Source: a virus
DNA length: 64,000 nucleotides
Virus record (IMG/VR): IMGVR_UViG_3300023174_000053
Span: 96,001 to 160,000 of that record
Strand: one strand, 5' to 3'
Every line of letters begins with the position of its first letter. Position 1 is the stretch's first letter. The notes under the pieces were generated by a model. The model had not been told where the DNA came from. It saw nothing but the letters and a program-made list of their open reading frames with translations, and searched no databases. This document shows positions 1,123 to 59,255 of this stretch, piece after piece. Both the position numbers and the translations under genes were made by a program.

Positions 1123-1152
1123 ATTATAACACACAATAGCAATAGTTGACAA
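1123..1152 (-). promoter_or_regulatory. sigma70-type promoter for g55 (TTGTCA-N18-TATAAT, extended TG)
   Basis: Minus strand reads TTGTCAactattgctattgtgtgtTATAAT immediately upstream of g55. Confidence 0.7.
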
Positions 1153-1174
1153 CTATAAAGAATGTGTCTATAAT
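1146..1174 (+). promoter_or_regulatory. Perfect consensus sigma70 promoter, antisense to the upstream operon
   Basis: TTGACA(1146-1151)-17 bp-TATAAT(1169-1174) on the + strand. Confidence 0.75.
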
Positions 1175-1206
1175 CACTCTGTTAGGGTTGAAGATAAGTT
1201 ATATCT

Positions 1207-18311: not shown

Positions 18312-18325
18312 TAGAAATTTTTTAA

Positions 18326-18748: not shown

Positions 18749-19803
18749 AATGATACATCAATCCCCTTTGTTGTACTGTAAACTTTACCATCACCAAAAT
18801 CAAAACGAGATTCACTAAATCCAAAATCATCGTCCATTTCAACTAATTCATTATCTGCTGTTGTAATTACATCAATTGAATCACCTTCATTGTGAGATTC
18901 AATTGATGTACCGTCTTGTCCTCTTAATACAGTTAAAATATTTCCAGAAATATTTTTGATATACATTTCCTCATTACTAATCATAATATAAGAATTATTA
19001 ACCAAGGATACAGCACTTGAAACATTAAATGCAGTTACTTTATCATCAATATTTTCAGCAAGTGTTGTGGTGTTGTCGTTATTGTAATCCTTAATTGCTC
19101 TTGGAGTAGCAGTATATCTCAATTGTCTTGATGCATTCTTTGTATCTGTATTTGTATAATAATCAACTTGGACTTTTTTGATTATTCCATCTGTACTGTC
19201 TGGAATTGGACCAAACAGATATGTTTTTGCTGTAAAGTTTAAAGTATATACCAAAGCTCTTCTTTCTTTGTAATCACTTTCATAATTATCTTCCATACTA
19301 ATTCCTTCCAAAATTACAGGAACATCCTTTTTTTCACCTATTGATGAAATCAAATTGATTGTTAATGAAAAACTTGGTTGAAATGCTGGAAGAATTTGTT
19401 CTACAATTTGAAGCATATCATCATTCAACTTAGTCATAATACTAAGTTGAAAACCAATATTATAAGGAACAGGCATAAAAACTTTAACTTGTTCTGTTCT
19501 ATCGGTAGTTTTTATTGCCTTGAATGTTTGCATAGCAGAAACTTTTCTGCTGCTATCATATTTCAAACTCGTCATCTCAAAAGACATTCGAGGAAGAGTC
19601 ATCGCAACTCTTTTTCTCAAATCTGGTTTTTGTTCTACTCTTGCTAAAAACTTTTGAATTGGACCATAAGCAATAGGAACTTTTATAAAACTATAATCAG
19701 TACCATCCTGCTCCTCGTGCTTAATGTACACTTCATTAAAAAGTGTACCAAAAGCAATGATGGTTTTTCTGATTATTTCATTGTAACTATAAGTTCCTAA
19801 CAT
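18745..19803 (-). CDS. g15: Tail sheath stabilizer/completion protein gp15
   Basis: IRKTIIAFGTLFN; VPIAYGP..KFLAR; TLPRMSFE; PVPYN; QIVEQILP.FQP. Confidence 0.95.
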   Translation of the reverse strand: MLGTYSYNEIIRKTIIAFGTLFNEVYIKHEEQDGTDYSFIKVPIAYGPIQKFLARVEQKPDLRKRVAMTLPRMSFEMTSLKYDSSRKVSAMQTFKAIKTTDRTEQVKVFMPVPYNIGFQLSIMTKLNDDMLQIVEQILPAFQPSFSLTINLISSIGEKKDVPVILEGISMEDNYESDYKERRALVYTLNFTAKTYLFGPIPDSTDGIIKKVQVDYYTNTDTKNASRQLRYTATPRAIKDYNNDNTTTLAENIDDKVTAFNVSSAVSLVNNSYIMISNEEMYIKNISGNILTVLRGQDGTSIESHNEGDSIDVITTADNELVEMDDDFGFSESRFDFGDGKVYSTTKGIDVSL

Positions 19804-22853: not shown

Positions 22854-25800
22854 ATTGATGCAATTGCTCTTAGGTCTCTAATAAGTGGAACATATGATTG
22901 ATTTGTTCCAGTCATAATAATTTTAATTTGGAATCCATTGAATGGAGTTATATTTTTACCAGTAAATTCATAATTACCAAAATCATTTAAAGTATTTGAT
23001 GCTTGGACAAATCTATCAGACCTTCCATTATTTTTTGAAGAACTGATTACATTTCCATTCTCATCAAGATTATCATACCCTGGGAAAAATTCATATAACT
23101 GTTGTGAATCTGGGGTATCATTTCTAAGCAATCTATACATAACTCTAATATCATTTGATGAGTGTCTATACGCATCAAAGAGAACTTTTAAACTATCTGC
23201 TGATTTTTGTAGTTTTACAAGTTTTGAAACATAAATTGCTGCGTTTGGATCACCACTTAATTGATTAACTCTTGGTTCTAAAACAAAATCAGAAACAGGA
23301 TTATTAATTCTATTCATTGTTGTGATAATATTTACTCTATGTAAATCAATCATTGGGGATACTTTTCTATCACCTGTTGATAGTAGAAGTTCCATAGTAA
23401 ATGATCTATTTCCTGGTAAAGTAGTTAAATTTGAAAGTTCATTTACTTTGGAATAAATTGCAGAGGTTTCACTTAGTTGATTGGTAGAATTTAAAGATAT
23501 ATCCTCAAATCCTCTATTTGCAAATGAGATTTCATTTCCATTCACACTTGTTCCAGTTGTTGTTCTAATTTTTGCTCCAATTGATGTTGTTTCTGGTAAT
23601 AATGTTTGTATGTTTGGTCTAATACTATTAAATGTAATATTTTGTGTTGCTTTTGGTCCATTAAAAGATCCAACAGTTGGTGTTGATGAATATGTACCAC
23701 CAGACTTAGTTTGTTTGAAGAACAGTTCTGTCCCAGAACTTCTAACAAGACCTGATTTTGATTGATCTATCTTTATGTGGTAAGAATCAAGTTCAATTGG
23801 ATATTTTACCAAATCAACATCTGTAAATTTATGAGTTTTATTAATTCTTCTAAGTGAAACTCCATTAAACTCATATTTAAATACAGACGCATTTGCTAAA
23901 TGTATTGTTGGAACTGTATTATCAATTCCTCTTGTGATACCAGTTAACGTATTTCCATTAGTTCCTGTGTATGCAATAATTTCATTATCAATAATAACAT
24001 ATCCAATATTACTATTTGAACCAGGAACAGCAAGATTTTCAAAGGTTGCTAAAGTACCAATAGAATTTAGTGTAATATCACTAGTAGAAGTAGAAGAATA
24101 GTCAGCAGTTAGTTTTACAGGAGCAATATCAGATTCAATGCCACTTAACGTAACTTGATTAATTGGAGAATACATTCCGTGATTTTGATGATTGACTTTG
24201 AAGTGCAATCCATCAGTAATATTATTGGTACTAGTTACTGTTGCTCCTGATATTTCTGTTCCATTATTGGTGATTGTATAACCAGATGTTGTATTTACTT
24301 TTCCTTGAATATTATCAACAATAATAGAATTAACTGCTGAAATAATTCCAACATTATTTGGAATAGTTAAAATAAGATTTTTTCCAAGATTACTTGTATC
24401 TGTAGAACTTACAGTTAATGTGTCTCCAGCAGCATATCCAGTTCCACCATCAGTGATAGTCGCAGCAACTGCTACACCAGAGGAAACTGAAAGATTTACC
24501 TTTGCATTTTTCCCAAATCCTGTTAATGTTATTAAATTTATATTTGAATATGTCGTTAGAGCACTTGTAAATCCAGAACCAACATTTGTTAATGTTAATG
24601 TTGAACCAATTCCAACTGCACCAACCTTAGATACAAGATTTGAAATAAAATTAGTATTAGAGGTTTGACTAATTGTATTTCCAACGGATAATAAATTCTG
24701 ATTTGCAACAGATAAACTATTTCCCAAACCAATTAATGCTGAGTTTGAATAAGCATTTAGTGGATTTTTTCTCAATGTTACAATTTGATTGTTACCAATA
24801 TTCAAATCTGGATTATAGAATCTAAATGATGCTGGTGAAGTTACAAAGTCTGCTCTATATAAGGTAAACTTCAAATCTTCTAAATCAGATGCAGTCCAAG
24901 TTGATCCATTTTGTGATTTAAATAATGCTCCAAGAGTTGGTTGTTTAGAAACAATAATTTTTTGAGAATCTGGTTTATTTACAGTTGATATATCTGTTTC
25001 TCCCATTCTTGAAATCCATACATTATATGAATCGGAAGAAGAGAGCAATACAATTGAATAACCAGAACCAACTTTTTCCAAATAAACTGGAGATGGAAAA
25101 GTAAATGTAGTTGCGACAGTACCATCTTCTGATGTTTTAACATCTTTTGGATGTAAGTCCACCTGAGAAAATGGTAAAATTGTTTGCGTTGGAAGACCAG
25201 TTTGCATCGTTCTAATTTGAAATCTTACTGGAATTCCCTTAGTATCTTTTGTTTTAAAGAAAATGTCACATTTTGTAATATAAACTCCATTAGTATCAGC
25301 AACTTCAAATGATTGTGCTAATGGATCTACCCATCTAGTTGATTCTGATGTTGTTGTTGTGGAAGTATTGGATGAAACTAAATTAGTTTCAGATGAAGTA
25401 AATGTTCGTGCATCTGTTTGAGGAATTCTCTCAACATTTGCGTTTCTGATCCTAAGTGTAGAATTTTCAACATTATCCAAAGTTCCAGCAGAAGTGAAAT
25501 TGACTTCTGCTGTAGTTTCGTCTGAAGTAACGACTGTAGTATTTGTTGAACTTGATGTTAAAACAAAAGTTTTTGTTCCAGTTCTAAACGATGGAGTTGA
25601 TGGAATTGTTGGATCAGGAATAAACAATGAACCAATATAAACTCCAGATTCATCTGCAACCAATCTCATATCAGAGATGATTGCAATTGCTCCACTTGTT
25701 TGCCCAACTAATTGCATACTTTTTGTAATACTACCATAAAAACCAGATGAGACTTGCATTTCTAAACTTGCCGTATCAACATTTAATATTGTAGTTGTTG

Positions 25801-28800
25801 ATGAGTACGAACTAGATAAAGAATTTTCTGGTAAATATGGATTTATTGAAAATGTTTCTGTTGGTGAATTATATGGACCATATTTATGATTTTGTGTTGC
25901 AAGTCTAAATCTAATACTTTTTGATCCTAAAGATCCAACTACTGTTTCTCCAGCAGTAAAAGTTCCACTAGACATTGAAACTTCAATTAATTTTGGTATA
26001 ACATATGAAGTCATATCAACATTATCAAAAAATGCATAAACTCTTGAGGATGGTTTCAATGCCTTAGAAATAATTTCAATATTTCTAGATCTCATTGTTG
26101 TTATAATTTCTCTAGAAACAATTTTATCTCCAAGATTTTTTGAATCAAATCTTTCTTTAACACCAAATTGAATTCCTTGCCTGGATTGTTTTGTTGCTGT
26201 AGTGACTGTTTGATTTTTAAATTCTATAAAATCACTTACAGTTGTTGTTGTATCAGTTACCTGTCTTCTGCCTCCACCTGGATCAAAAGTTGTTGTGGAA
26301 CTTGTACTTCCAGTTTGTAATCTACCCAAAGATGGACCATTAAAGGTGTTGGTTCCAGTCCAAGTAGTTTCCCAAGCATTCCAATCAATTGGAGAAAGAC
26401 CAGTATTGCTATCTACACCAAGTTGTTGTATTGTTGTATTATAATTACCTTCAATGTCATCAATTCTTTCGGATCTTCTTGTTTCATTCCAAGTATCACT
26501 TGATGGATTTAATTGAATTGAACCAATCCAGTTAATTACATTAAATGGATTTACATTTTCACTTCTTGTAGCAAATTGATTTTTTACATATTCAACCTCA
26601 GAATAATTTAAACAAACAACATCTCCAATTCTTTTTATATTTGGTGAACCCAAATCACTAACAAAACGCAAATCAGCATCTGGATTTGATGTTTGTCCAA
26701 TTCCAATAACTGCTTCAGATCCTAAAAGTAAATCTATAGAAGTTGTATAATGGGTTGGTTTCAATATCCCATTAGCAGTATCGATACTTGCTTTATAGTC
26801 CCTATTTGTTATTTCTCCACCATTATAGGATCTAAAATTATCAACAAAGAAACCACATTTAAATCTATCTAATTTTGTTGTGGTGTCTCTTATTGTTAAA
26901 TTTTGAGTATCTGTTTCCAGTAAAGATAGTGACGTATAATATTCAACATTTGAAAGTCTATCTTCCAATCTGGAGATATCTTTCATTGTATATCGTTTGT
27001 GTTGCACTAAAGATGTTGATGCATCTTCTGAATTATTTAAATAAGCAGGTAAACGAATTGTTGCTATTTCTAAACAAGAATCTAAACCATTTGGAAGTTT
27101 TGGTTGGAGTGATGGAACCCCCTTGTTTACAATAAATGAACCTTCTTTTGTTAAGAATAATTTATCAATTCTTGGTAAATAATAATCATAAGATAAATTT
27201 ATTGCTTTATTTTGTGCAAAGATATTTTGTGTAGAATTTTGTCCAGTAAATAATCTTGATTCATACTCAAATGGTGATTTTGTACCAGAATATGGAGAAA
27301 CTCTTGGTCTTAAATCAATAACATCACTCAGAGATATTCCGTCAACTGATGATATATCATCTCCATATCTATCTTTATCATAAGAATTTACTCCAACAAA
27401 ATCACCAGCATCAGATGAATCAATTGTATAATTATTGTAAATAATTGTAATCTGTTTTGTTGGTGCAGCAACCTGTGGTTTTCTGATAAGTCTTGAAAAA
27501 TCAAGGTATTCTGATCTTTGCCCTTCATCTAAAATAAAGTTAGTTCTAATATTTTTATCACCAACTTGAATTGAGTCAACAGTTCCAGAAATTTGAGATT
27601 CTTCAAACGTAACTTTTTCACCAACAGAAAAAATATTTTCATTTAGATAAACAAATTTCACTTCATTTGTTCCATCATTTGATACTAAACTTGCAACTGC
27701 TCCAGTATCTTTACCAACTATTCTCTCTCCTTTAATTGAATTTAAAATATTTGAATTCAATCCAATTATTGTGATTGCTGGCAATATTGGAGTCGTTGAA
27801 GAAGATGACTCAAAAACCCCAATAACTGATTCTACGTCTGGAACATTTAATGAAATCTCATCATCTTCAACTCTTAAACCATAAACAGTACTAGTAGTTA
27901 ATCCATTTATAGACGTAGAAATACCAGAAGAAGTTTTGTTGATTGTTAGACTAGAGCATCTATTATATGACTTTTTACGAGTTTTTGTGTTTATTTTTTT
28001 AAGAGTAGCAGTCAATATTGCTGCACCATTGCCAGTAATATTTTGAATTGATATAGTTCTTCCACTTGGAACTAATTTTTGATTGTCTAATGCTACTACA
28101 GTTCCATCATTATAGGCCAAATTATAATCTTCTTCATCAAACGGTTCAAATGTTAATGAAGTGTCTGTTTCTAATGTATTACTATATGCGTTGTTTGCTA
28201 TAGTAATATTATAAGATTTTTTGAATACTACATCAGAACCAGTTAAATCTAAATTTGAAACTTTTGAGTTATTTAAACGTGCGTATAAAAATGCATTTTT
28301 TGTATTTAAAACATTTAAAGATACTACTTTGAAGTCATTTACAGTAATTGTTGAACTTGGAAGAGCACCAGAACAAACACCAGAAACAGAAGTCGTTGCT
28401 ACAATAGTTAAAGACTTTGAAGATCCACTAACAACAGAAACTTTGTTATAAGTAGGTACACTTTCTCCTTGCTTTGTATATGATACAATATCACCTACAT
28501 TAATTCCAACGTAAAAGTTTTGATTGGAAGTTGTTACTGTGGAAATTCCACTACCACCAGATGTGATGGTAAATTGAGTTCCTGGTTCCGCAACAGATAA
28601 TGTTTTTGATAAAATTGGATCAGCAGTAAAAGTTCCTACACCAGATACAGATTCATTTGCAACTATTTGATGAACATCGGATAAGGAATAATCTTTTGCA
28701 GATGCAATTGTGCGAGAAACATCTAAACCGTTAATTTTGATCTGCTCGTTTGTTATAAATGAACCAGAAACTTGATATAAGGTTAAAGTAGTAGATGCCG

Positions 28801-34800: not shown

Positions 34801-36916
34801 TTCCAGCACCAGTTAAGTAAATATTTGATATTGTGCCAGCAACAGAAACAGAAACCGTTGCAGAGGCACCTACAAGGGGTTGATAACCATATCCAGTCGT
34901 AATGGCAACTCTAACAATTTTTCCAACATTTGGAACTCCACCTATAAACTTAATAGTATTATTTCCTTCAGTATCAATAATAAAATCACTATCAGATATT
35001 TGTGAAATATTATTCAATAAAATAAATGGGTTATTGTTTATACTTGAACTGCTATTAGTATTAGAATATAATGCGGATACATTTTCACCATTTGATTTTA
35101 ACACAACATTCAATCTTGTAATATTGAATGTTGTTGTGGCAATTCCAGTATTTACATTATGATTTGGAGCAATAGTAATTGACCCAACACCTATAGATTG
35201 AATAACTGTATTTCTTACAATATATTCATTTTCTGTATATTCTAAATTTAGAACATCTCCTAAACTTAAAGAAGATGTAATAATTCCACTAATTATATTT
35301 TTACTTGAAAAATTTAGAGTTCCTGTTTTAATTCCTACTGTTTCTGCCTTTCCGGTAAAATCTTTAGAAATGTCATCAATAATTAAATTTTTATCTGATG
35401 GTTTTCCTGGATCAAATCTTCTTGAGAACAATCTTCCTTGAAATGACGAATTTACCTGCAAACTTTCTTGACCTATTTTTCCATATGGTGGATCGGTAAA
35501 ATAAATTGTATCTTTAACTATATTAAAATCACCTCTCATTACAGTAACTGCTGCTCCAACAGTATGACCTGCTGCTGTTGTTCCATAATATCCACGATCT
35601 ACAATCACACTATTAGTTGAACCAATACCAACCGATCTGACTTTCATTAATTCAGAATCAATCATCAAAACATCCAAAGATGTTAATGAAGAAATACCAG
35701 ATCTCAAATAGATTGTATTTCCAATCCCAATTGATGTTGCTGCGTATGATACATTACCTCTTCTGTATAGTGGTGATTGGATTATATTATCAATCGTGAT
35801 TAAAGCACTTGAATTTGGTTCTGGGTAGGTGAATGAATGAGTTCCAATTCCATAAGTTTTAATATCTAAATCAGAAGATGAAGATAGGCCAGATACTTTG
35901 AATTGATTATCATTTAATTTATCAATATATAAAATTTTTGGTAAAATATCAGTTCCCAAAAGTGTTGGTGAAAGATATAAATTATCTGCTGGTGTAGAAC
36001 CACCAATATATGTTCCAGCAATACTAATAATGTCTGTAGGAGTTGAAGATGTGCTTGTAGTTCCAACACCAACCACTCCTATCGAATAACTTCTTCCACC
36101 ATTTGCAACTTGAACTGAACTAATTTTTCCTGTAGAATCTCTTGATACATTAAATGTTGCTCCAGAACCAACACCAACTGTTGTAGTGCCAGCAACACCA
36201 GTATATGTTGCATTTGCTGCTGCTACTATTGCTGTACTTGAAACTTTAGATACTTTAAATGATAATGTATTGGTTGGATTTGTTCCTCCAAAATTAGTTC
36301 CAGCAATTGAAACCGTATTTCCTATTCCATATCCTCTTCCACCATCTTTAAGAATGATAGATGTTGAAATTGGATTTCCAGTTGCTAAACCATCATAAGT
36401 AATCCAAACTTCAAATGTTGCTCCAGTTCCAATTCCAGACGTAGTAGATTGAAGTGGATTTCCAAATCCATAAATGCGACTTAAAGCATTTGGTATTGAA
36501 GTAGACACACCAGTGATTGTAGTAGTGATTGCTACATTATATCCATTTTCAAATATTGCACTTCCTATACCACCACTCACACCCATTATAATCCCACCAC
36601 CATATTCTTTAGTCACAAATTGTGATTCAACTAAAGATGTTGTGCCAATACCAATTTTTGTTCCTGTTTCTGTTACTACTGGATAATATCCAGATCCACC
36701 ATTAATTATTTTTACACTTTTAATGGAACCACCAGAAATTATAGGATAAAAAACTCCTTCTATTACTGGTGTTGCAGTATTTTGTATGGTAATTTTTGGT
36801 GGATTTGTTGAAGCATATCCAGAACCACCATTAAAAACAAGAATTTTTGAGACAGTATAAAACTCTGTCTCAAACTCTGGTTGAAGAATTGCACCTGACC
36901 CCGGAACTGTTCGCAT
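31889..36916 (-). CDS. Large baseplate/virion protein; apparent C-terminal part of a cyanophage gp7-like wedge initiator, with a beta-propeller-like (FVAVG..G) insert
   Basis: IDNIIQSP, SSFQGR.F, IDDIS..F.G, FINDILQ.PG, YYRGS, YGRYTW motifs; directly precedes g8; own AATAAATA promoter at 36945-36952. Confidence 0.75.
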   Translation of the reverse strand: MRTVPGSGAILQPEFETEFYTVSKILVFNGGSGYASTNPPKITIQNTATPVIEGVFYPIISGGSIKSVKIINGGSGYYPVVTETGTKIGIGTTSLVESQFVTKEYGGGIIMGVSGGIGSAIFENGYNVAITTTITGVSTSIPNALSRIYGFGNPLQSTTSGIGTGATFEVWITYDGLATGNPISTSIILKDGGRGYGIGNTVSIAGTNFGGTNPTNTLSFKVSKVSSTAIVAAANATYTGVAGTTTVGVGSGATFNVSRDSTGKISSVQVANGGRSYSIGVVGVGTTSTSSTPTDIISIAGTYIGGSTPADNLYLSPTLLGTDILPKILYIDKLNDNQFKVSGLSSSSDLDIKTYGIGTHSFTYPEPNSSALITIDNIIQSPLYRRGNVSYAATSIGIGNTIYLRSGISSLTSLDVLMIDSELMKVRSVGIGSTNSVIVDRGYYGTTAAGHTVGAAVTVMRGDFNIVKDTIYFTDPPYGKIGQESLQVNSSFQGRLFSRRFDPGKPSDKNLIIDDISKDFTGKAETVGIKTGTLNFSSKNIISGIITSSLSLGDVLNLEYTENEYIVRNTVIQSIGVGSITIAPNHNVNTGIATTTFNITRLNVVLKSNGENVSALYSNTNSSSSINNNPFILLNNISQISDSDFIIDTEGNNTIKFIGGVPNVGKIVRVAITTGYGYQPLVGASATVSVSVAGTISNIYLTGAGSGYRIAPVISIASTIGSGATITASIGSGGTVTSLTIVNAGTGYTTAAKPIINIPIPPNYSNLGVAYTGGSSGVGEGAKISMIVSNGSSITGLNLDDPGYGYKVGEVLKVVGITTNPLVGVGFSEFRMTVLETFTDKFGGFYPGQFVRINSLAPFFTGKKRKFLLTVTTLGVTDTFSVRTIPGSDLNKSNNFFIFINDILQKPGESYNIIGSQIIFSEAPKANSKCLILYYRGSDLDVEIIDPPRTIKEGDSIQIGENISDPYDREQFERVVKKIVSEDIFDTFPYDSLGINTDSKKARPLRWTKQTRDRIINGVLYSKGRPDLKSRNTPTTRIIKSVEKNDTTIYVNNAFPLFMEDVGRGLAEDLRDIIVLDNKTVGFATGTASVSVASTVSSITIIDSGSGYQVANPSVTISSAFITRKDPIYDWKGTTGITTNYEIKSITYGNIFVGVGTSSLLVKSVDGISWSNSNVGYGNSIAFNSVTFAGTNTYVAVGQTGKIIRATGIGTGLSTWVECKLTNRISEGNDNQLPEDNVSTYDGEFKDISYSSSKETFVAVGKTSIVNKSPIFIAVGIGTTEFFEKNKTNTKNLNSVSNNNSTFVVVGDGGRIYYSTPDVNNTPDVNKWNISNLTTQNLNKVIWDGSKFVAVGNSGVIITSQNGITWDLQTNVNITNNLTNINYYDGVYVVLDTDGKLYYSLDLSTWEQRSTNQSNTIKDLIFVPSLSSEGRYVVVGSAATIMYSEPVYNRATATSSTSNGIVSSVTITNGGFGYSQTNIPPVIFESPKPNREKVYSIKAKGDFGTIIGINTIGIGLSSLEFKLKSETYDNTNLGIGYSSLDKFGVTYSQLEQGDYFVIYDSNVTSGYALTGITTTTGIRVGTSTSFIDGLYRVENASNPSSGIVTVRCDFVPVPNGVNKAINVGINTFYGRYTWSKIYDYQNRARENPKDFVVNTNNGLTGLSTAAEVYRTRGLI
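32937..32972. repeat. Perfect 18-bp tandem duplication (TPDVNN-TPDVNK)
   Basis: ttatttacatcaggagtg x2. Confidence 0.85.
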
Positions 36917-41419: not shown

Positions 41420-44400
41420 TTATGTGTTTGAATCAAATGTAATTCCACCAACAGTCATATCAAATGAAACCCAGATAGTATCATCAAATCTTTTGTTTAT
41501 ACTATAAGCAAAAGCATTGTCTACATATGTGGTTGCTGTTCCTGCTGGACCAGAATCTGAAATTACAGAAGAATACAATATTTTTTGTCCTGTTTGGAAA
41601 TTGTGATTTGTAAGATTAATGACATCATTATTAATATCAACAATACTACTAGCAGAACTAACAAATGTACGATGAAATAATGGTGTTTGTTTGCTAGTTA
41701 ATTTAAAAGATTTACTTCCAATCACAGTATTCCCAGGAAGTCTTCTTCTAATTTTTACCTCAGAAGTTTGAATGCCGATATTTAATCTGTGTGGAAGATT
41801 TAATCTTATACTTCCAATACCAATTGCATCAATAACAGTACTGTCTGGGATAAGTAAAGTAGAAAATCCCACATAATCACCAACCCTCAAATTATCAGTA
41901 TTAAGATTTATATAATATGGATAGAAACTATTAAATGTAGCAGTTTTTATTCCAATTGAAATATATTCATTCGAACCATCAAACTGACTACTTATATCGT
42001 CCATTATCAAAACCTTATTTGTTTTACTTAAAGTATAAGGTTTGAGTGCTAACCCAAAAATAGGTCCAGTTATACCAATACCAGCAACATTTGCTTCTTC
42101 TGCTCCAATATTTACTCTTTCAATTGAACCATCTTCAAATAAACTGTCAGATTCTTCGGTAACTAATGATAAATTGTTTCTACTATAAAATGATGATATA
42201 TCATCAAGATTTATAAGTAAATCTAAAGTAGAATTTGCAATTCCAACTTTTAAATCATTTTTTATTACACTTCCAATTCCAACATAAGTTAAAAACTTAG
42301 GAGAAACACTTATAATATCCAAATCAGAAAATTCTTTAAATCCTGCTGGATGAATTACAGAACGAACTGATTCTTTCCAGACATCATAAGATACTTCACT
42401 CTTAATTGAATATGAAAACTTTTGATAATAAGAATTGTCTGAAATCCTTTGTTGATAATTATTTAAAAATCCAACTTCATTTCCAGCATCATTAACTTTA
42501 TCTCTTGTTGCTCCAAGTGTTGATTTTAAGTTGAACTTATTAACAAATTCGACAGTACCATTCAATAATGATTTTTCACCTTTTAGTTTATTTCCAATTT
42601 CCAATTCACCTTTTGCATCAATCAATCGCAATTGATTGATATCATTATCCCAACCATTTTCCATAACAGTTGCGGAAAATACTATATTTCCATTTGATGT
42701 TGTAATTCCAATAACTTTTTCCCCAGAAATATAACTTAAATCATCAATAAGAATCATCTCAAACTCAGGCATATCCTTTTTATTGATTACAACTCCATAA
42801 CCATTACTATTGGTATAATTGCCTTCACGATTTGGTTGATTCAAACTTAATGTATCTTTCACTCCAGTCATGCTGAATGTTACTGTGAAGTTTTCTGAAC
42901 TTATTCCAGTTACAGTAAAGAACTTATATCCATAATCTTTTGAGTTGAAATTGTCTATTTTTTTCTTATTATTATCTTCTGTTTTTATTTGCCTACATTT
43001 TTCTATAAAGATTTCATCTCCAATAGCAAATGGGAATATAGTTTCTGTTTTTCCATATCCAGTTGTGATTAGTGGATATAATTGAGTATCATTTAATAAT
43101 TCCAATCTTATCTCAGAACCATCATCTTCTGCTACAATATCGTCAATCTCGTATCCATTAGAATTGTTTATAGGTACAATTCTTAATGGTGTGATTAAAT
43201 CATTAGTGTTTTCAACAACTTTTACCCCAACAATACTTCCACTTTGTAATTCGGCAGATAACTTTATCTTATCATTTCCAATAACTTTGAGTGATGGGGC
43301 AGTATTGTATCCCTTTCCTCCAGTTGTTATACCAATATAATCAATTCTTGCAATATCTTTAATTTGAACTATTGCTGGAGAACTTAAAAATGGAGTTAAT
43401 GTAGTATCAGTTGGGTAGTTAAAACCATCTTTAACTCTTTCTAACTGACTAACTTTTCCTATTGTTGATGATGATGACCTAAGAATAGAATTTTTACCAG
43501 AAATAGTTTCAATTGAAGAAATTTTTGGTAATTTTGTATATCTTTTTCCGCCAAAATTAACTTTTATTTTTGATATTGGTCCAGAAGTATTGGTAGAATT
43601 TGTATCATAAAAAACACTTGATGATGTGTGTGAGGTATTCTCTGGTTTTGTATTTAAATTAAACTTGAATGTTGTACTTCCAATTCCTATAATTGGATAT
43701 TCATTATTAAATGTGCTAGGAATAATTTTAATTCTGTTATTTGCTACAACTTCTTTATCGGAAGAAATTTGGAATAATTCAGAAGAAGAATTTGTTGATG
43801 GTATTAAATTATAATATAGTTCATTTTGATTAATGATCAATTCTTTTGGAATATTAGTTGTTCTAGTGTTTAATTTTCTATTATTATTGTCAATATATTT
43901 GAAACTTTCAATTTCTTTAGAAAAATTTGGATCTCTGTATAATCTTAAATCCATACCAGAAGCATCAGTCAAATCAAAAGTTAATATATCTCCTTCCGTA
44001 ATACTGATTGGTGGATTAATGAGAGCAATACTATGAATAGAAACACCAACATTTGTAAAACTAATACAAGTTCCAACTGCTGTATCATAAAGATAATTTG
44101 ATAACTTTATCTTATCTGGATTCTGTTTTAGAACATAATAAGTATTGTTATTGGTCAATCCACCAATAACAGTATTTGTATTGGTATAATAAACAACTTT
44201 ATCACCAGTTTTTAATTTATTACCAGTTATAGTAATCTCATTTGTTTGTGTATTTACACCAACCGAAGAAGCATCAAAATCAATTTTATCTGTTGTGATT
44301 TTTCTAAGTGTAGTATCGTATCTTAATTTTATTGTGTTTGAAAAACTTGGGAGCACATTAAATTTTATTTTATCGTCTGTTTGTAATCCATGTGTTTGTG

Positions 44401-47400
44401 CTGTAGAAACAGTTACAGAATAATTTTCAAAAGTTCCAGTAATTTTGGAATATTGTGTTGTTAATGAATGTGCTAATCCAATATTTGTTATTGGTGAAAA
44501 GAAATATAATGAGTTATTTGATGTGCCAATTCCTGTGGTTGTTGTAAATCCTAAAGTTGATAAACCAACATAATCATTTCCCAAATTGACTGCATATACT
44601 GTTTGATTTTGATTTATTCTAAATGTAGAACCTGTACCAGTATTTGATACTACAATCCCGGTCCCCCCCAATCCAACATTATAGGTTAATAATTGTCCTG
44701 TGTAATATTTGTGATTTGGTATATAAATTGAACGAGATGGAACAAATTTATCATATACTGATCTTTGGATGAAATACGTAGTAGTAAAAATTCCACCACC
44801 AAGAGTATTATTTGATGAAATTTGGATACTTCCAATTCCAATATTTACAATAGTTGTTCCAACAGAAACATAAGTTCCTGAAACATAATCACCATTTTTT
44901 AGTGCAATAGTATTAATTCCAATATAACTGGTTCCAGTACTAATTGTACCAAAATCAGTTTTAACTCCAACCAATTTATAGTAATTTGTTCCACTTGTTC
45001 CTATTCCTATTGTATTGCTGGGATTGAAATAAATGGTTTTATTCTCTATGATAGCATCATCATATTGTGAAGCATTAAATGTAAATGTATTTGGAAGTAA
45101 TATAACAGAAACAATGCCTGCAGTATGAATTCCAGCATAATTTTGATATCGATTTACAAATAATTTTGATTCTGAAGATGAAATATCAATAACTCTTAAA
45201 GTTTCTGTATTGATTCCAATTAAGTTATCAACTTCAAATCCAGAAACATCATTTACAGAAATATAAGTTGTTACACCAGTAGTTGATTGGTTTGGAATAT
45301 CATTTATTAAACTAACACTTTTTTGATTTACTAATACTTTTTTAAATCCTTGAATGTAATTATAAGGACTAGAAGAAATGGAAGTAACTAAAATTTCATC
45401 ATTTGTAATTAAATTGTGAGGTGTTCCTGTAATTCCTTTTACTCTTGTTCCCTTTGTAATAAAAGTAACACCAGAAAAAGTAGATACACCAATTTGAATA
45501 TTGGAAACTTCTTTTCCTTCGACTCTTGAAATTGCAGCAGATATTCCAGTTCCACCAGAAGTAGAATCATCAAAAATAATATTATCACCTGGTTTATAAT
45601 CTTGGCCTGGATCATAAATTGATACGGAATTTATACTAGAGGACTGTATTTGTTTTACTATAAATTCTTGTTTATATTTTGATTCTATTTTATTAATTAA
45701 ATCATAAGATGCATATGAAGAATTTAAATAATATGGACCAGTATTTCTTACTATATCTAAATTATTAAAATTCAATTCCTGATTGAATGATGGTTCGAAA
45801 TTTTCTTCTATCGGCAAATCTTTAAATTCTGAACCGATCAGATATGGGTATTGTGGTTTTTTTACTCCATTGGAATCATCAAGAGTAAGAAAATATCCAT
45901 AATTGATATTTGGAAAATCACTATTGGTTATAAACATTCCATTATATTCATCCAAATGACCTCCAGATGTTGCTTTATCATAAACAAAATCTTGAATAAA
46001 AAATCCAGATGAATAATTAGGTCTTATATTCGAATTAATCAATCCATCTATTTCTGGTTTACTAGTTTGCTTATAACTTGATTTTATTTGTGCAATTGTT
46101 CCATTTATTTTGCCATAAGGGCCAAAAATAGGATTTCCATCATATGCCCATCCTAAAATACGATATGGATTTATTGCTCCTTCTGGTGGTTGTTCTGTTC
46201 CATCTTCTTTATTGATGAAATTCTTTAAATTTTTTCTTAATTTTTTAGAAGGGTAATAATTTATAAATTCCAATCCAAATTCATCAACATCACTTGGTAT
46301 AATAATACCTTCATCTTCAGAATTGATAATTGACTTATTTTTTTCAATTTGATTTATTTGCCATTCAAAAACGTTACCTTCAAATCTAGCACCAGAACCC
46401 CTTTTCTTTATAATTAGTTCTGTATTTGTTTCATCGTAGTTTATTCCAGAATTAATAACTGAGACTTGAGTTATTTTTCCATTTACTATAGTCGGAAATA
46501 GTTCAGCGTATTTTCCGTTTTTACTAGTAATAATAATATCAATATCATTTGCATATCCTTTTCCTGCATTTAATATTTGAACATCAACAATTAAACCATC
46601 CGAAATAACTGGTTTTAATATTGCTTCTGATATTTGTTTGCTTACAGAAACAAGTGGTTTTCTGTGAAAGTTAATAATATCTGGTGTTCCATATTTACTT
46701 CCACTATTTTCTATAAAAATATTATCAAAAGAACCAAGAACAATCGGATCTAATGATGGTTCTATAATTGTAGTAGTAATTCCACTAATTGCCTCAACAT
46801 TAATTTGAATTGGTGGATATGAAAATTTGTGTGTTCCGACACCAATAGAAGCAAAACTTATATATTTTTTATTAATATAATTTTCTCTAGAAATATTTGT
46901 AGAAAGTCCAGCAATTGATAGTTTAAATTTATTTTCATCAACTACTGTTACATGGTAATTGGTTTGAGTTGATAAACCAGATATTACAGCATCTGATGTT
47001 GTATATAATATTAAATCTTCATTTTTAAAGTTATGATTTTTTGCAAAAATATAATCATCAAATGTATTAATTCCAACTGTTTGATTATCTGCTGATAATA
47101 ATGATGGAACTGCTACAAATCTATTTGAATATCCAGAACCACCATTCTTTACATATATTTTTGTTATTGTATTTTTTGAATTTAATGTTTTTAAACTATG
47201 AATTCCAGAATATCCAATACCACTAATTGAAATAGTATTAATTCCAGATATAGCATCTATTTTTGTATTATATAATTTAATTTGTGTTGTGCTTGTTACT
47301 CCAACAAAATATGAAGAACTGTCAATAAGAGGAGATATGGAAGTATTTGAGTTTTTGTTATAAAAAACCTCTTCAAAATTATCAAAATTGTGATTTTGTG

Positions 47401-49850: not shown

Positions 49851-51731
49851 TTATCTTGTATAATTTCCGTTTACGTAACTTGATGTGACCGCATATTGTG
49901 TTGCTGAAGTATTTTCACCAGATGTAATTACATCCTCCAGAACACTTACATTAAGTTTAGTTGTATCTAGTTCCAAGTATATATCCTTTAACGCAAGGAC
50001 ATCATTTGACTCTGGTATCGCTTGAATTTCAATCCCAGCAGTACTAGTAGATGATGTGAATATTATTGTAGTTAATTTAATTTCACCTCTCATATAATTT
50101 ACGGTTCCAGCATTATTGTTTACAACTACAGGGGAACCATCAACTAATTTAAAGAAAAATATAATTCCAGTTTCATTAGTTTTTGGAACATCACTCATAT
50201 ACAAAGTTCCACTAGTATCTTTTACTGTAAACCCAGTTGATTTGATATTATATCCTCTGCCATCAGAATTTAATTTCTTAATATGAAATTGATTTCCAAA
50301 ACATATTTCATACGTTGCTAATTTATTATATTCTGGTTGTAAATCTCTTCTAATTTTAATTTTAGTAATATTGGAAGTAATGGATGTACTTGTATTGTCA
50401 ATCAACGAAGAAACTTTACTATATTTAAATCTACCACCAAAACTATTCAACTCGGTTGATTTGCTATATGATTCTAAATTTTTTATAACTCTTAGTTGTA
50501 GATTGTTTGAATCTATTGTAGTACTTTTATCATAATAAACTGTTGTATCTATTTCAACATACATATACTTCAAATCAATAATTTCTGGTTTAATCCCAGC
50601 AATTGAATATTGTTTTAAATCTTTTTTAATACTATCTTTTGTAATTTGAGAAAGGAACTTACCTTTTCTTGGTTTGATTGAAATATAAACTTTACCATAC
50701 TCTGGAGGATCTAACTCATCCCCACCATATGCCGTCACAGTATCCACATTTGGAAACAGATATGGGATTAGTCCTTTATAATCATTTGCGGTTACTGCAC
50801 GGTATTGTGAAGCATATACTCTAGGTCCAAGATACTTAACTGAATCAATTGATTCAATATCATCACCGTTTTCGGATGATTGAATGGTAGTTAATAAGGA
50901 AATATTGTTTGTGATTGATGTGCTATTATTATCAGTTAAAATACCAGAAAAAGTAAAGTTTGCTGCTCCATTTGCTTCTTTTCCATTTGTAATAATATAA
51001 CTAATAAAAATAGTACTTCCACTAATTGGTTTTCTTCCTATAATATCATCACCAAATAAAATTTCATATTTCTCATCATCTATTTCTTGTATTAGAAAAA
51101 TCCTTGAATTTTTATTTACTTGAAAAATATTTTTATATGATTGATATTTTTCTGCAATAACACCAGTAACTTTTACACGAATTGTAGACGAATCTACACC
51201 AGTATTTGGAATTGTAAATCTTTGATTTGTTTGTGATTTATCTACTGTATATGACTTTGTTAAATATGAACCTTCATAGACATCAATACTTGTGAAATTT
51301 GCAAATCCATTATTATCAACGACTACTGTGATGTCTTCTGGAATTGAAAATATATAATTACCATTCTCAACAGCACCCAAAGCAACGATTCCTGCTTTTA
51401 GAGTAACTGTTTTTGAATTTAACCCTGTAGTATTGACAGTAAAACTAACCTTTGCCTTTGACGCACTTTTGGATCTGGGGACGTATCCTATGTTACGTGC
51501 AAGAGAGACTACATTTTCTCGAAGAGTTGCACTATCAATAAAGGATTCATTTACTGCCATGTTAGTATTGAAGGCAGTAATATAAGAGTTGTATGCTAAT
51601 ACATCAATTAAACTTGAAAAATTAGACCCTTCAAAATCAAAATCCGTGAAATTACTATTCGATCTCAAATAATCCTTTATCTGAGTGCGTAAATCATTAA
51701 AATCTAGATTGGTAAAATTATTGAAGGGCAT
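49851..51731 (-). CDS. g6: Baseplate wedge protein gp6
   Basis: LDF...IKDYLR....FTDFDFEGS..S.LIDVLAYN; ESFIDSA.LR.NVVS.AR.IGY.P.S; QYRAVTANDY. Confidence 0.97.
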   Translation of the reverse strand: MPFNNFTNLDFNDLRTQIKDYLRSNSNFTDFDFEGSNFSSLIDVLAYNSYITAFNTNMAVNESFIDSATLRENVVSLARNIGYVPRSKSASKAKVSFTVNTTGLNSKTVTLKAGIVALGAVENGNYIFSIPEDITVVVDNNGFANFTSIDVYEGSYLTKSYTVDKSQTNQRFTIPNTGVDSSTIRVKVTGVIAEKYQSYKNIFQVNKNSRIFLIQEIDDEKYEILFGDDIIGRKPISGSTIFISYIITNGKEANGAANFTFSGILTDNNSTSITNNISLLTTIQSSENGDDIESIDSVKYLGPRVYASQYRAVTANDYKGLIPYLFPNVDTVTAYGGDELDPPEYGKVYISIKPRKGKFLSQITKDSIKKDLKQYSIAGIKPEIIDLKYMYVEIDTTVYYDKSTTIDSNNLQLRVIKNLESYSKSTELNSFGGRFKYSKVSSLIDNTSTSITSNITKIKIRRDLQPEYNKLATYEICFGNQFHIKKLNSDGRGYNIKSTGFTVKDTSGTLYMSDVPKTNETGIIFFFKLVDGSPVVVNNNAGTVNYMRGEIKLTTIIFTSSTSTAGIEIQAIPESNDVLALKDIYLELDTTKLNVSVLEDVITSGENTSATQYAVTSSYVNGNYTR

Positions 51732-52129
51732 TATATTCTAGTTGGTTGTAAAAGAAACTCTATATTTTGAAGAGGAAATGGAAGTCCAACAATATCGTAA
51801 GAAATTTTTACATTCAATTCATTTGAATCTTCAATCGATTCAACCATTACTTCTTTAACTACAATTCTTGGTTCAAAGTTACTTAATACTGTTTTAATTT
51901 CTTCATCAAGTATTGTCGAAACTTCTGGTCCATTAAGTTCAAATAAAGAATTATCAACAGAGGTTCCCAATAAATTATTGAAGAACCTCTCACCAATACG
52001 AGTTCTGATTAAGTTAATAACAGATTTTTTAATCGCATCCTCATTTTTTAATACAAGAACATCGTTCGTCACTGGATGTCTAGAAAAAGACAAACTAATG
52101 TCCTTAAAACTTCTAGAAATACTAAGCAT
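51731..52129 (-). CDS. g25: Baseplate wedge protein gp25
   Basis: FKDISLSF..HPVT.D; AIK.SV.NLI.T..GERFF; FEPR. Confidence 0.95.
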   Translation of the reverse strand: MLSISRSFKDISLSFSRHPVTNDVLVLKNEDAIKKSVINLIRTRIGERFFNNLLGTSVDNSLFELNGPEVSTILDEEIKTVLSNFEPRIVVKEVMVESIEDSNELNVKISYDIVGLPFPLQNIEFLLQPTRI

Positions 52130-53763: not shown

Positions 53764-54516
53764 TCAGATGATTCGTGTCTTCTCGTGTCCAACACGAATC
53801 AAAGGATCACACCAAATCTCATATCCTTGCTCTTTAGCATCCAAACAGAATGAAACATCCTCTCCACACATATCTTGAACCTCTCCAGATTCAAAGACTT
53901 GCATCTTCGGTGCAAACCATGGATACTCAAGACTTTCAAATACTCCTTTCTTAATCAATACCCATCCAAATCCAGTATAGTCAACTGTAAATGGTTTGCG
54001 ACGCTTACTAATAGAGTCCAAAGTCTCATGATTCATTACACCACCAGACTTACGGAAATCATCTTCCTCTAACCAATGTGCAACAGATGTGGTGTGACCA
54101 TCCTCAGTGCAATACCATCCAGCAGCAATATCCTTATCCATTGCAACAAGACGATAGAACTTCTCAGTATCAAATACAATATCACTATCAATCCAGAGTT
54201 GATAATCATACTGTAACTTGCCATCCCAAGGAATCTGCTTGGGTCCTCTGAGTACATTTGCTCCAAGACATTTGCATCGAGCAAAGTTTACCATACTCGA
54301 ATAATCTTGTGAAATCTGAATACTCGCACCACTCTGTACTAAATCAAAACAAAGTTGTACAAAGTTCTTCAAATAAATGTAAGATACTCCTCGTCCTGGA
54401 AGACAAAATACAATTGACTTCCCTCGAATCATCTCCTTTGCTGCTTCCAAATTAAATTCACCACTACCTGACGAACTCTTCGGTGCTACTGTTTTTACCG
54501 TAAATCCTTTAGCCAT
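53764..54516 (-). CDS. GT-A fold glycosyltransferase-like protein
   Basis: LWIDSDI (DxD), G.GW.LIKKGVFE.L..PWF, GEDV.FC..A...G..IWCDP.IRVGH.K. Confidence 0.8.
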   Translation of the reverse strand: MAKGFTVKTVAPKSSSGSGEFNLEAAKEMIRGKSIVFCLPGRGVSYIYLKNFVQLCFDLVQSGASIQISQDYSSMVNFARCKCLGANVLRGPKQIPWDGKLQYDYQLWIDSDIVFDTEKFYRLVAMDKDIAAGWYCTEDGHTTSVAHWLEEDDFRKSGGVMNHETLDSISKRRKPFTVDYTGFGWVLIKKGVFESLEYPWFAPKMQVFESGEVQDMCGEDVSFCLDAKEQGYEIWCDPLIRVGHEKTRII

Positions 54517-54869: not shown

Positions 54870-55068
54870 TGTTCTCTCAGGGCATTTTTTATTATATATC
54901 CTTTTAAATCTTTATACAAAAAAATATTTGGGGCAGAATTTTTTTATTTGAAAGACAATTTCGAGCTCGTTTTCGGTCCGTTGTAGGTTAGGGTAGTGTT
55001 GCGTTTTTATATACGGGGGGCAACGGTTTATAATAAGAATACAACAACACAAAATATAACTGTCAAAC

Positions 55069-55585
55069 AGTGCTGTTGTATAAGAATAAACGAACAAGTA
55101 TAATAGTTTATAATCAGTACTGTTTGATTCTTAACTCATAATAATGGGGGGTGGGTATAAACAGCACTAAGTTAGATCGTGTATAAACGAAGGAAAACTG
55201 TATAAGAATAAAACAATACTGTGTGATTGTTATAACGAACTGTAGATCCTGGTTGGGTAAACGAAGATATTTGTAAAATATAAGATAGGGAGACTACAAG
55301 TTAGTACACAGAACTGTGTACAACGAATAGTATAGCACTGTTTGATTCTTATGTCAAATAAAGTGGGGGTGGGCACAAATCACAAAACTGTTATATTGTT
55401 GTGATATAACTGTTATATTGTTGTGCTATAAGACGAGCATATACTTATAGTGTGTGTATAACGAAGTGATATAACGAACTGTTATGTATAACGAACTGTT
55501 ATGTATAACGAAGTCTTATGACGAAGTGCTATGAATAACGAACAGTTTTCCACAAGTTATAACGAACCCTGTGGAGTATAACGAA
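55069..55585 (+). repeat. Co-oriented (TAT)AACGAA repeat array with 17-bp and 22-bp tandem units
   Basis: AACGAA at 55069, 55186, 55234, 55260, 55322, 55460, 55473, 55490, 55507, 55537, 55561 and 55580; ataacgaactgttatgt x2.5 (55471-55512); actgttatattgttgtg[a/c]tata x2 (55387-55430). Confidence 0.88.
55329..55357 (-). promoter_or_regulatory. Near-consensus sigma70 promoter TTGACA-N17-TATACT (extended TG) inside the non-coding locus
   Basis: Minus strand TTGACAtaagaatcaaacagtgcTATACT. Confidence 0.75.
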
Positions 55586-55756
55586 TAGTTTTCCACAAGT
55601 TTTCCACAGGTTTTGAATAGTTTTCCACAGGGCAAATCTTATAAACCCTTACAAACACTAAGAATACTCATAAACCTGTGGAAAACTATTATGTGGAAAA
55701 CTAACGACTTGCCCTATAGAAAACTGTTGCCTCCTGTGGAAAACTATTTTTCCACA
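55546..55756. promoter_or_regulatory. Cluster of eight perfect DnaA boxes of the cyanobacterial type (TTTTCCACA); oriC-like
   Basis: Forward at 55546, 55589, 55600, 55621, 55748; reverse (TGTGGAAAA) at 55677, 55692, 55735; degenerate copies near 55570 and 55715. Confidence 0.8.
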
Positions 55757-55815
55757 AGTATAATAACTATAAACATCAGCAGTTCTTATACTATTCCCTC
55801 CCCCCCTACCCTATA

Positions 55816-55873
55816 AGTCTACCGCGGAATCACTGAGTCTTACGAGACACTGTGCCAGTTCTCAAAGTGTCCT
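55816..55873 (-). promoter_or_regulatory. Box-type promoter firing leftward into the DnaA-box cluster
   Basis: GTGCCA-N10-TGTCCT (55852-55873) lies 30 bp from a minus-strand TAGACT (55816-55821), the same geometry as the other cassette promoters. Confidence 0.55.
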
Positions 55874-55963
55874 GCGTCTCATAAGTCTTACGAGTAACTA
55901 GCAAAAAACTCCCAAGACTCATAAGATGTATGAGTCTCATGGGTTTCATTGTCAATATGCCCT

Positions 55964-56022
55964 GTGCCAGTCCTATAAGTGTCTGTGAGGCACTTGACAT
56001 TTTTTTGTTCTTATGGTATAAT
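55964..56022 (+). promoter_or_regulatory. Perfect sigma70 promoter TTGACA-N17-TATAAT (extended TG) with upstream box; no downstream ORF
   Basis: TTGACA 55994-55999, TATAAT 56017-56022; GTGCCA-N10-TGTCTG at 55964-55985. Confidence 0.8.
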
Positions 56023-56236
56023 GCTCGCTTAGACAACAAGACCCAGAGGCATTTATAAGAGTATAAAGAGGGTATAAGCATCTTTATAATAACCTTTATA
56101 TAGCACAGTACAAAACACGTAACTATGTTTTTTAATACATTTAATTTAATTATGATATGTAACGTAATTGTGTTGTAATTGATAATCTATGCTTATGAGC
56201 ATGAGGAATAGTGTGTGAGAGAGTAGAGAGATAGAC

Positions 56237-58835: not shown

Positions 58836-59255
58836 TCAGAATTGAGTGTCAAACACATAACCATTGCTGTTGAAAACAACATCCAAATTATTGAATGATG
58901 CTTCCCAATCAATCTCCAGAAAACCAGGAAGATCAACAACATAGCAATCACTTACATAACTCTCCGCATAATCTGCTTTGGAATCATATTGACCCCGATA
59001 AGAGTCTTGAAAGTTATCACCAACCAAAGAATAAAGACCAAACTCTTCAATGAAAGCATCTACTGCACCGTAAGAATACTCTTCACCAATTTCAACATAG
59101 TTTTGATAATAACTGCGGAAAGATTCTTCCGAAGTTTCAGCAATGAACTCTACAATATCTTCTAGACAATAAGAATCAGCAATCAGTTCTTCAATTTTAT
59201 CCACAGTCTCCTGCGAATAAACTTCTTTGTAATTCATAGTGAAAGGAACAGACAT
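58836..59255 (-). CDS. ArdA-like acidic antirestriction (DNA-mimic) protein
   Basis: Highly acidic; YRGQYDS.ADYAE....D......IDWE........NGYVF resembles the ArdA C-terminal domains. Confidence 0.65.
   Translation of the reverse strand: MSVPFTMNYKEVYSQETVDKIEELIADSYCLEDIVEFIAETSEESFRSYYQNYVEIGEEYSYGAVDAFIEEFGLYSLVGDNFQDSYRGQYDSKADYAESYVSDCYVVDLPGFLEIDWEASFNNLDVVFNSNGYVFDTQF

Follow-up and report, generated by a model that had tools for sequence, protein, structure and literature searches.

A gene-free stretch of 1,367 bp in the genome of a T4-like cyanomyovirus (IMG/VR record IMGVR_UViG_3300023174_000053) appears, from comparison with related genomes, to be a syntenic control module of this phage family (Kyanoviridae), including the laboratory phages S-PM2, S-CAM1, P-SSM7, and DSL-LC03. 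The module occupies positions 54870–56236 of the 64,000-nucleotide stretch analyzed here (the window; bases 96001–160000 of a 171,027-bp viral contig with an estimated completeness of 89%), between accessory and baseplate genes (gp25 and gp6) on its left and small early-type genes on its right. It contains a phased array of eight perfect DnaA boxes, a predicted strong sigma70-type promoter facing against all genes, and an AT-rich motif downstream of this promoter. Tentatively, the module can be read as an early replication origin resembling oriF/oriG and oriE of phage T4 and receiving input from the DnaA protein of the host, a possibility we would place somewhat short of probable.

The module is non-coding. 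An earlier, sequence-only reading of the window had described it as by far the longest gene-free stretch there, which was borne out: the next longest gap spans 305 bp, and within the whole genome the module ranks second. Codon log-odds were below zero for eight of the nine open reading frames (ORFs) inside it (the lowest at −0.28 per codon) and +0.02 for the remaining one, compared with 0.00 to +0.38 for the small ORFs on its flanks. No in-module ORF matched a PHROG or Pfam family, and in relatives these ORFs are interrupted by frame-breaking indels of 1 nt and 20 nt. Taken together, codon scores, absent family matches, and frame-breaking indels rule out hidden small genes. A peptide starting with MFFNTF, which could be read from an ATG within the AT-rich motif, was rejected as well, as it is not conserved; several phages have ATA instead of ATG, and in DSL-LC03 a stop codon follows immediately. 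Searching the module with Rfam returned only sub-threshold chance matches, and no tRNA is present within it.

Conserved elements of the module and their arrangement in relatives

Eight of the 11 perfect TTTTCCACA sites of the genome lie within 211 bp of the module (55546–55756), with starts at 55546, 55589, 55600, 55621, and 55748 on the plus strand and at 55677, 55692, and 55735 on the minus strand. Their orientation (>>>> <<< >) makes two arrays converge, and of the start-to-start spacings (43, 11, 21, 56, 15, 43, and 13 bp), those of 11, 21, and 43 bp are near whole helical turns. This geometry recurs in relatives, where direct boxes are 11–12 and 21–22 bp apart from start to start, that is, one and two helical turns, before a spacer of 56 or 78 bp leads to the inverted boxes; the resulting 11/21/56 or 11/21/78 pattern is found even in diverged phages. 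The same 9-mer is the "species-specific" DnaA box of cyanobacterial oriC, as was experimentally shown for S. elongatus, Anabaena, and Cyanothece (PMC4674748). As neither a DnaA AAA+ domain nor a DnaA domain IV was found among the proteins encoded by the phage, and as the DnaA family model was matched by 36 of 41 sampled picocyanobacterial host-family genomes, we infer that host DnaA is the binder.

The array is not a copied oriC. Synechococcus RCC307 has eight perfect boxes in its whole 2.2-Mb genome, two direct boxes within 40 nt occur in only 15 of 81 Cyanobiaceae genomes, and the clusters in these 15 comprise two to five perfect boxes each. A captured host oriC was ruled out by this sparser clustering in the host family and by the lack of enrichment of the AT-rich motif in 121 host-family genomes. 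Between the module and isolate phages, no DNA similarity beyond short motifs was detected.

The promoter facing against all genes is part of a cassette at 55964–56054 on the plus strand, which consists of GTGCCA..GAGGCAC, TTGACA (55994–55999), a 17-nt spacer, and TG-n-TATAAT (56017–56022). The sequence-only reading had predicted a perfect rightward TTGACA-17-TATAAT promoter at 55994–56022, and this is indeed present; among the five perfect TTGACA-N17/18-TATAAT sites of the genome, it alone has an extended −10 TG. Directly upstream of TTGACA, it carries its own cassette variant (GTGCCA..AGTGTCT..GAGGCAC), which is conserved in many phages. Transcription is predicted to start near 56029(+), within a conserved initial transcribed sequence (GCTCGCTTAGACAACAAGACCCAGAGGCATTT, 56023–56054). 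About 95 nt downstream of this start, the AT-rich block begins with the 20-mer TATGTTTTTTAATACATTTA (56124–56143, plus strand) and continues as an AT-rich tract to 56190, together forming a candidate unwinding element; in S-PM2 and S-CAM1, the block lies only ∼20–45 nt downstream of the antisense start. The 40-mer at 56120–56160 is the least stable DNA of the locus and, ranked by duplex instability across the genome, falls in the 99.6th percentile. The 20-mer is unique in this genome and recurs with at most three mismatches in ∼20 phages. In 121 host-family genomes, no match with fewer than two mismatches was found, and at two mismatches there were 22 matches versus 17 for a reversed-pattern control. 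The 20-mer is, thus, specific to phages and not a host motif.

For the antisense transcript, no conserved fold was obtained (RNAalifold), and its predicted structure was less stable than that of shuffled sequences (z = +0.9 to +1.2). A structured small RNA expressed from the antisense promoter was ruled out by this weak fold and by the lack of an RNAalifold consensus on either strand. An unstructured antisense RNA is compatible with a role as primer or in an R-loop.

Relatives were gathered via the neighboring phrog_1574 gene. Upstream of this gene, the nearest relative (L005) has eight boxes, L007 and L011 have seven each, and L008, L010, L017, L018, L021, and L031 have three to five. Three direct boxes were detected in more than 114 IMG/VR contigs; of the 112 contigs examined, ∼45 were T4-like cyanophages with the cluster located between the gp6–gp25–glycosyltransferase-like block and early-type genes. 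Among isolates, clusters were found in DSL-LC03 (seven boxes within 460 bp), S-CAM22 (four, 42183–43041), P-SSM7 (four, 45973–46631), S-RIM44 (three, 58893–58925), S-PM2 (three, 19231–19264), and S-CAM1 (two, 36320–36340), together with a looser group in Syn9 (two boxes at 52565/52589 and one at 54597); the position on the baseplate side was seen directly for P-SSM7 and S-CAM22. In the S-PM2 RefSeq entry (NC_006820.1, L306), several tRNA features at 17414–19333 overlap coding sequences (CDSs) and the box/AT-motif module at 19231–19292. These features look misplaced; ARAGORN found no tRNA in S-PM2 between 16500 and 23500.

When the module was aligned with those of L005 (∼90% identity) and L007 (77%), the box array with its spacers, positions 55770–56060, the antisense promoter, and positions 56110–56175 were nearly invariant; the region 55040–55450, where repeat units are gained and lost, was plastic. 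Even between phages with only ∼50–60% identity in gp6, the 9-mers of the boxes and the distances between them have been preserved, as have the rightward promoter and the AT-rich 20-mer. From this comparison with relatives, it follows that selection maintains the locus. When 20 phages, including S-PM2, S-CAM1, DSL-LC03, and S-SCSM2R (which lacks the box cluster), were oriented on the AT-rich block, one shared order of elements emerged: GTGCCA...GAGGCAC; TTGAC(A/T), 17 nt, TGnTAnnnT; a start of GCnnGCTTAGAyMACAAG; a variable spacer; and TAT(G/A)TTTTTTAATACATTT(A/T). The rightward promoter, the leader, and the AT-rich motif make up the conserved core. In 48 IMG/VR contigs, the invariant 15–17-nt core of the 20-mer is found no more than 30 nt from a box (33 with the box downstream, 15 with the box upstream), for which the chance expectation is, as a rough estimate, well under one match. 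The 20-mer directly abuts DnaA boxes in S-PM2, S-CAM1, L086, and DSL-LC03, and in the former three the antisense transcript would run straight into the boxes.

DnaA-box arrays were also encountered in other phages. Four contigs of IMG/VR sample 3300045988 (L096, L125, L137, and L148; ∼32–43 kb, 55–58% GC) carry six direct TTTTCCACA at the contig end, adjoining the terminase gene. Judged by their large terminase and portal genes, they represent a different phage type, and they gave no T4-like matches; such arrays are therefore not confined to T4-like cyanophages. Short box-array matches were also obtained in Microviridae (one record, nine places) and in Prevotella, Lactococcus, Streptococcus, and Clostridium phage records.

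Lineage-specific repeats, leftward promoters, and genomic surroundings

To the left of the box array, and reaching into it, lies a polar array of 13 ACGAA iterons (12 of them AACGAA; consensus gTATAACGAAcTGTTAT; 55089–55585). All 13 copies are on the plus strand and none on the minus strand, spacing in the tight part is 13/17 nt, two copies abut DnaA boxes, and all seven TATAACGAA of the genome are inside the module. The AACGAA array is confined to the clade of this phage (L005, L007, L008, L011, and L021); other clades have different repeats, namely, AAATCTTAAG in S-PM2 and AACTAGATT and TATAAGAC in DSL-LC03.

The iteron array, two G-tracts, a C-tract, the box cluster, and the AT-rich tract had all been named by the sequence-only reading and were found at or near the positions it gave. 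The G-tracts (GGGGGGTGGG, 55146–55155; GGGGGTGGG, 55365–55373) are both inside a 46-nt repeat unit present in two copies (55116–55161 and 55334–55379), which on the minus strand reads CCCACCCCC, −35, 17-nt spacer, −10; GGGGGTGGG occurs only twice in the 171-kb genome, both times in the module. The concentration of boxes, TATAACGAA, GGGGGTGGG, and same-strand ACGAA copies at this one locus greatly exceeds chance. The second copy contains the leftward sigma70 promoter that had been predicted at 55329–55357, for which TTGACA-17-TATACT preceded by TG was confirmed (55357–55329, minus strand). The copy number of the unit varies, with three in L007, and in L005 the −35 of this leftward promoter is deleted. 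At about +1 to +20 of the same promoter lies a perfect palindrome, GTACACAGAACTGTGTAC (GTACACAG-AA-CTGTGTAC; 55304–55321), which is nearly invariant in L005 and L007 and, by its sequence, looks like an operator.

A candidate leftward promoter of the cassette type spans 55796–55875 (minus strand) and comprises the C-tract (55796–55810), a TAGACT −10 (55816–55821), as had been proposed, and a TGTGCCA half-site (55851–55857); its 29-nt spacing was checked. The corresponding RNA would start with GGUAGGGGGGG and then cross the DnaA boxes. Half-sites of the early-promoter cassette TGTGCCA-N10-TGGCACA are located inside the module at 55851–55875 and 55964–55993, and a further promoter-like site (TGGAAA-16-TATAAT, 55737–55764) overlaps the boxes. 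Promoters were found by scanning for consensus sequences, which yielded 14 sites compared with 10.1 expected in shuffles. Far from the module, at window 1146–1180, another perfect TTGACA-17-TATAAT on the plus strand (start 1146) and a near-perfect promoter on the minus strand (start 1152) overlap; the two may constitute a divergent or palindromic pair.

The leftward G-rich transcript and the C-tract, which the sequence-only reading had emphasized as an R-loop element, fared less well, being conserved in L005 and L007 only; also, the repeat units carrying the G-tracts vary in copy number, as noted above. The features stressed for R-loop formation are the least conserved parts of the module.

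At the left edge of the module (54936–55040, plus strand), another conserved element, here called element (i), has a core of TAGGTTAGGGTAGT (TTGTAGGTTAGGGTAGT; 54984–54997) followed by GTTTTT. It could be aligned in ∼48 IMG/VR relatives, is unique in this genome, and also occurs in the isolates S-SCSM2R, P-SSM7, DSL-LC03, and Syn9. Neither strand gave a consensus RNA structure, and 1-nt indels indicate that it is not coding; the annotation of S-SCSM2R places it inside a hypothetical CDS. Interpretations of the repeats as NtcA, LexA, Pho-box, or IHF sites were discarded, as none fitted its consensus by eye.

All substantial ORFs of the 171-kb contig are on the minus strand. To the left of the module are the baseplate wedge genes gp6 (49851–51731) and gp25 (51731–52129), the genes for an S-adenosylmethionine decarboxylase and for a protein matching phrog_3704 (a PHROG family annotated as ferredoxin), and the glycosyltransferase-like phrog_1574 gene (53764–54516). 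To its right follow many small ORFs, a DUF2786/DUF7168 protein, an ArdA-like protein, a helicase, and tRNA-Thr. The source virus is a T4-like cyanomyovirus: its gp6 shares 62% identity with the protein of Synechococcus phage S-SCSM2R and 58% with that of S-SSM7, and its genome contains psbA and psbD. The phage also encodes the gp59 helicase loader. The only stretch without a scoring minus-strand ORF longer than the module is found outside the window, at 24479–25951 of the genome. GC skew is positive around genome 21–27 kb, so plus-strand genes or RNA genes are probably located there.

Possible roles as replication origin, transcriptional boundary, or DnaA sponge

DnaA binding, promoter activity, R-loop formation, and origin activity at the module are predictions made from its sequence. 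If it were an early origin, the antisense promoter would fire against the direction of all genes, and its unstructured, A-rich transcript would enter the conserved and easily melted AT-rich element (56124–56190), where it could remain hybridized in an R-loop and supply the primer from which the T4-type replisome of the phage begins leading-strand synthesis. Host DnaA would be recruited by the eight phased, convergent boxes as an auxiliary or licensing factor; possible effects are bending of the DNA, a block to polymerases, or a coupling of origin firing to the initiation state of the host. A second factor would be recruited by the lineage-specific polar iteron array (55090–55585).

According to Kreuzer and Brister (2010; PMC3016281), oriF and oriG of T4 consist of a promoter and an A+T-rich DNA unwinding element (DUE), and oriE combines iterons with an early promoter. 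Since the promoter, the downstream AT-rich element, and the iterons of the module match this description, a hybrid origin can reasonably be considered. As in oriF (uvsY) and oriG (gene 34), a predicted promoter for host RNA polymerase is followed by an A+T-rich element in a T4-type phage with gp59 and its own replisome, the site is at a boundary of transcription units, and the predicted transcript is unstructured. The module differs from these origins in that its promoter is of the early sigma70 type with an extended −10 (whereas that of T4 is a MotA-dependent middle promoter), in that its AT-rich element is a near-invariant 20-mer family-wide, and in that T4 origins have no host DnaA boxes. 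With oriE (12-nt iterons, early promoter, RepEA/RepEB), the module shares evenly spaced direct repeats that adjoin an early-type promoter of a T4-type genome and that are conserved among close relatives only; sequence and spacing of the repeats differ, no RepEB-like gene was identified, and the module has DnaA boxes in addition. The role of the iterons in oriE itself is unproven (PMC3016281).

A number of observations weigh against this origin. In S. elongatus, boxes and trios are arranged as 5′-TTTTCCACA TTTTCCACA GCCC (CTA)n, from which the rule for trio orientation was derived (supplement of PMC8287927). DnaA-trios (3′-NAN-5′, consensus GAT) were accordingly sought as runs of at least three within 16 bp 3′ of TTTTCCACA, ideally after tandem boxes and a GC spacer. 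In the cyanobacterial orientation, no run of significance adjoins any of the eight boxes. The only run of at least four triplets (GTA TTC TTA GTG TTT GTA, that is, six NTN) follows the 55677(−) box after a 9-nt spacer, is a poor match to the consensus, and would arise by chance with a probability of ∼0.09; an eight-triplet NAN run after the 55748 box was rejected, being on the wrong strand for the cyanobacterial arrangement. Neither run lends support to a canonical basal unwinding system. Furthermore, the AT-rich block is 367 nt away from the nearest DnaA box in this phage and, unlike in S-PM2, S-CAM1, DSL-LC03, and the 48 IMG/VR contigs, does not directly adjoin the array. Depending on the phage, boxes are found on either side of the AT-rich motif, which makes a single fixed unwinding geometry unlikely, and the complete genomes of S-SCSM2R (one box), P-HM2, and P-SSM2 (scattered boxes only) have no box cluster. 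As S-SCSM2R retains the promoter and the AT-rich motif all the same, DnaA input seems to be optional; given the variable side of the boxes and their absence as clusters from some complete relatives, DnaA looks like an accessory, tunable input.

Counting against the origin as well, the leader of the antisense transcript is only moderately purine-rich (79th percentile) and has no G clusters; at this percentile, a strong purine or G-cluster bias as predictor of R-loops was dropped. PHROG and Pfam scans of the flanking ORFs, which were not exhaustive genome-wide, revealed no Rep/initiator family and no RepEA/RepEB-like gene, only families of unknown function, DUF2786/DUF7168, the ArdA-like protein, and the helicase. 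Whole-genome GC skew, which the sequence-only reading had suggested as a check, falls steadily in its cumulative form without a switch at the module, because all genes are on one strand; it is uninformative as an origin marker and gives no origin signal there. Finally, T4 DUEs need no specific sequence (PMC3016281), so the near-invariant 20-mer hints at a specific binding or signaling role beyond the origin model. Of the hybrid of R-loop and DnaA-dependent origin put forward by the sequence-only reading, therefore, the anatomy and the likeness to T4 origins stand, whereas the G-rich leftward elements, the missing DnaA-trios, and the absence of the box cluster from some relatives speak against it.

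Somewhat unlikely, but the foremost of the alternatives, is that the module serves as a DnaA-dependent transcription control or boundary between the early-gene block and the accessory/baseplate genes, for which no origin function would be needed. At some E. coli genes, DnaA is well known to repress or terminate transcription. Bound to the module, it could repress or obstruct transcription from the leftward promoters as well as read-through from early genes, the antisense promoter would oppose such read-through by convergent transcription, and the switch from early to late expression would be timed by the DnaA status of the host. The boxes are, in fact, positioned between the candidate leftward cassette promoter (−10 at 55816–55821) and its downstream genes, and they are overlapped by the TGGAAA-16-TATAAT site; the predicted antisense transcript meets boxes directly in S-PM2, S-CAM1, and L086; the module is always at the junction of two gene blocks; and boxes differ in number and side between phages, which would suit a regulator that can be tuned. 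This explanation leaves the near-invariant AT-rich 20-mer and the lineage-specific iterons unaccounted for, however, and eight phased boxes in two convergent arrays far exceed the needs of a repressor site. In addition, the promoters it invokes come from the consensus scan only, with its small excess over shuffles.

Unlikely, too, is that the array is a decoy without any role in cis, that is, a sponge similar to datA which, as copies of the phage genome accumulate, titrates away or inactivates host DnaA and thereby shuts down chromosome initiation and DnaA-controlled genes of the host. In E. coli, datA and DARS are non-origin clusters of DnaA boxes that titrate or recycle DnaA. The phage array resembles them as a cluster of high-affinity boxes located elsewhere than in a chromosomal origin and potentially able to alter how much free or active DnaA is available. 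In one phage genome, perfect boxes are as numerous as in an entire host chromosome, related phages have anywhere from zero to eight boxes, as for an optional accessory of host takeover, and a DnaA-trio unwinding element is missing. Yet a sponge needs no fixed site, whereas the clusters keep a syntenic position and, in 48 contigs and a number of isolates, are tightly coupled (no more than 30 nt away) to the phage-specific AT-rich motif and the antisense promoter; such a tie to promoter and AT-rich motif is not a known need of datA or DARS. Spacing and orientation of the boxes are conserved, moreover, and the benefit of a sponge is doubtful, since T4-like cyanophages degrade the DNA of their host.

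Very improbable is an origin of the iteron-plasmid type (R6K gamma, pSC101, P1 oriR), at which a Rep-like initiator of the phage would bind the AACGAA iterons and open the DNA together with host DnaA: although 13 same-strand iterons abut DnaA boxes, iterons differ by clade while host boxes stay constant, and plasmid-like iterons were noted for T4 oriE (PMC3016281), no Rep/initiator family was found among the flanking ORFs, the iterons are 540–1030 nt from the AT-rich block, and they are absent from most clades keeping the rest of the module. The module does share with the origins of such plasmids and phage-plasmids the joint presence of iterons, DnaA boxes, and an AT-rich region, and with the ColE1/pBR322 origin a predicted priming transcript and auxiliary DnaA boxes; it is unlike both in its looser spacing, in that no adjacent rep gene was found, and in its carrier, a lytic T4-type phage with its own helicase loader. 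Cyanobacterial oriC and its basal unwinding system have the identical 9-mer consensus and, likewise, multiple, phased, and opposed arrays (PMC4674748, PMC8287927), but the module lacks a convincing DnaA-trio run, a GC spacer beside a tandem pair, and the dnaN/dnaA context; its boxes do not directly abut, its cluster is denser than those of the host family, and its AT-rich motif is phage-specific.

The T4-like early origin with DnaA input and the readings set against it are not mutually exclusive. A stronger version of the former, which we place on the unlikely side, is that the first replication round of T4-like cyanophages, unlike that of T4, depends on or is licensed by host DnaA at a single family-wide origin composed of antisense promoter, 20-mer, and phased boxes, and would thereby be coupled to the cell-cycle or diel initiation state of the host.

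Relevance for T4-like cyanophages and their hosts

T4-type phages are the textbook case of replication independent of host initiators, and to our knowledge, no origin has been mapped in any cyanomyovirus. In the full-text literature on cyanophages, cyanomyoviruses, or S-PM2 in connection with DnaA or a replication origin, no paper describing the module was found. Added here are the phage specificity of the 20-mer and its quantified coupling to boxes, the resolved orientation of DnaA-trios with a negative outcome of the test, the conserved geometry of the array, the lineage-specific iterons, element (i), and the non-coding status of the locus. On sequence grounds, the module appears to be the best candidate for the place where T4-like cyanophages start or time their own replication. 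As the same layout is present in the laboratory phages S-PM2, S-CAM1, P-SSM7, and DSL-LC03, this notion is directly testable. Cyanomyoviruses kill a sizeable share of oceanic Synechococcus and Prochlorococcus, in which DNA replication is gated by light and the cell cycle. If the proposed function holds true, a conserved module binding host DnaA would provide a concrete mechanism tying viral replication or early transcription to the physiology of the host.

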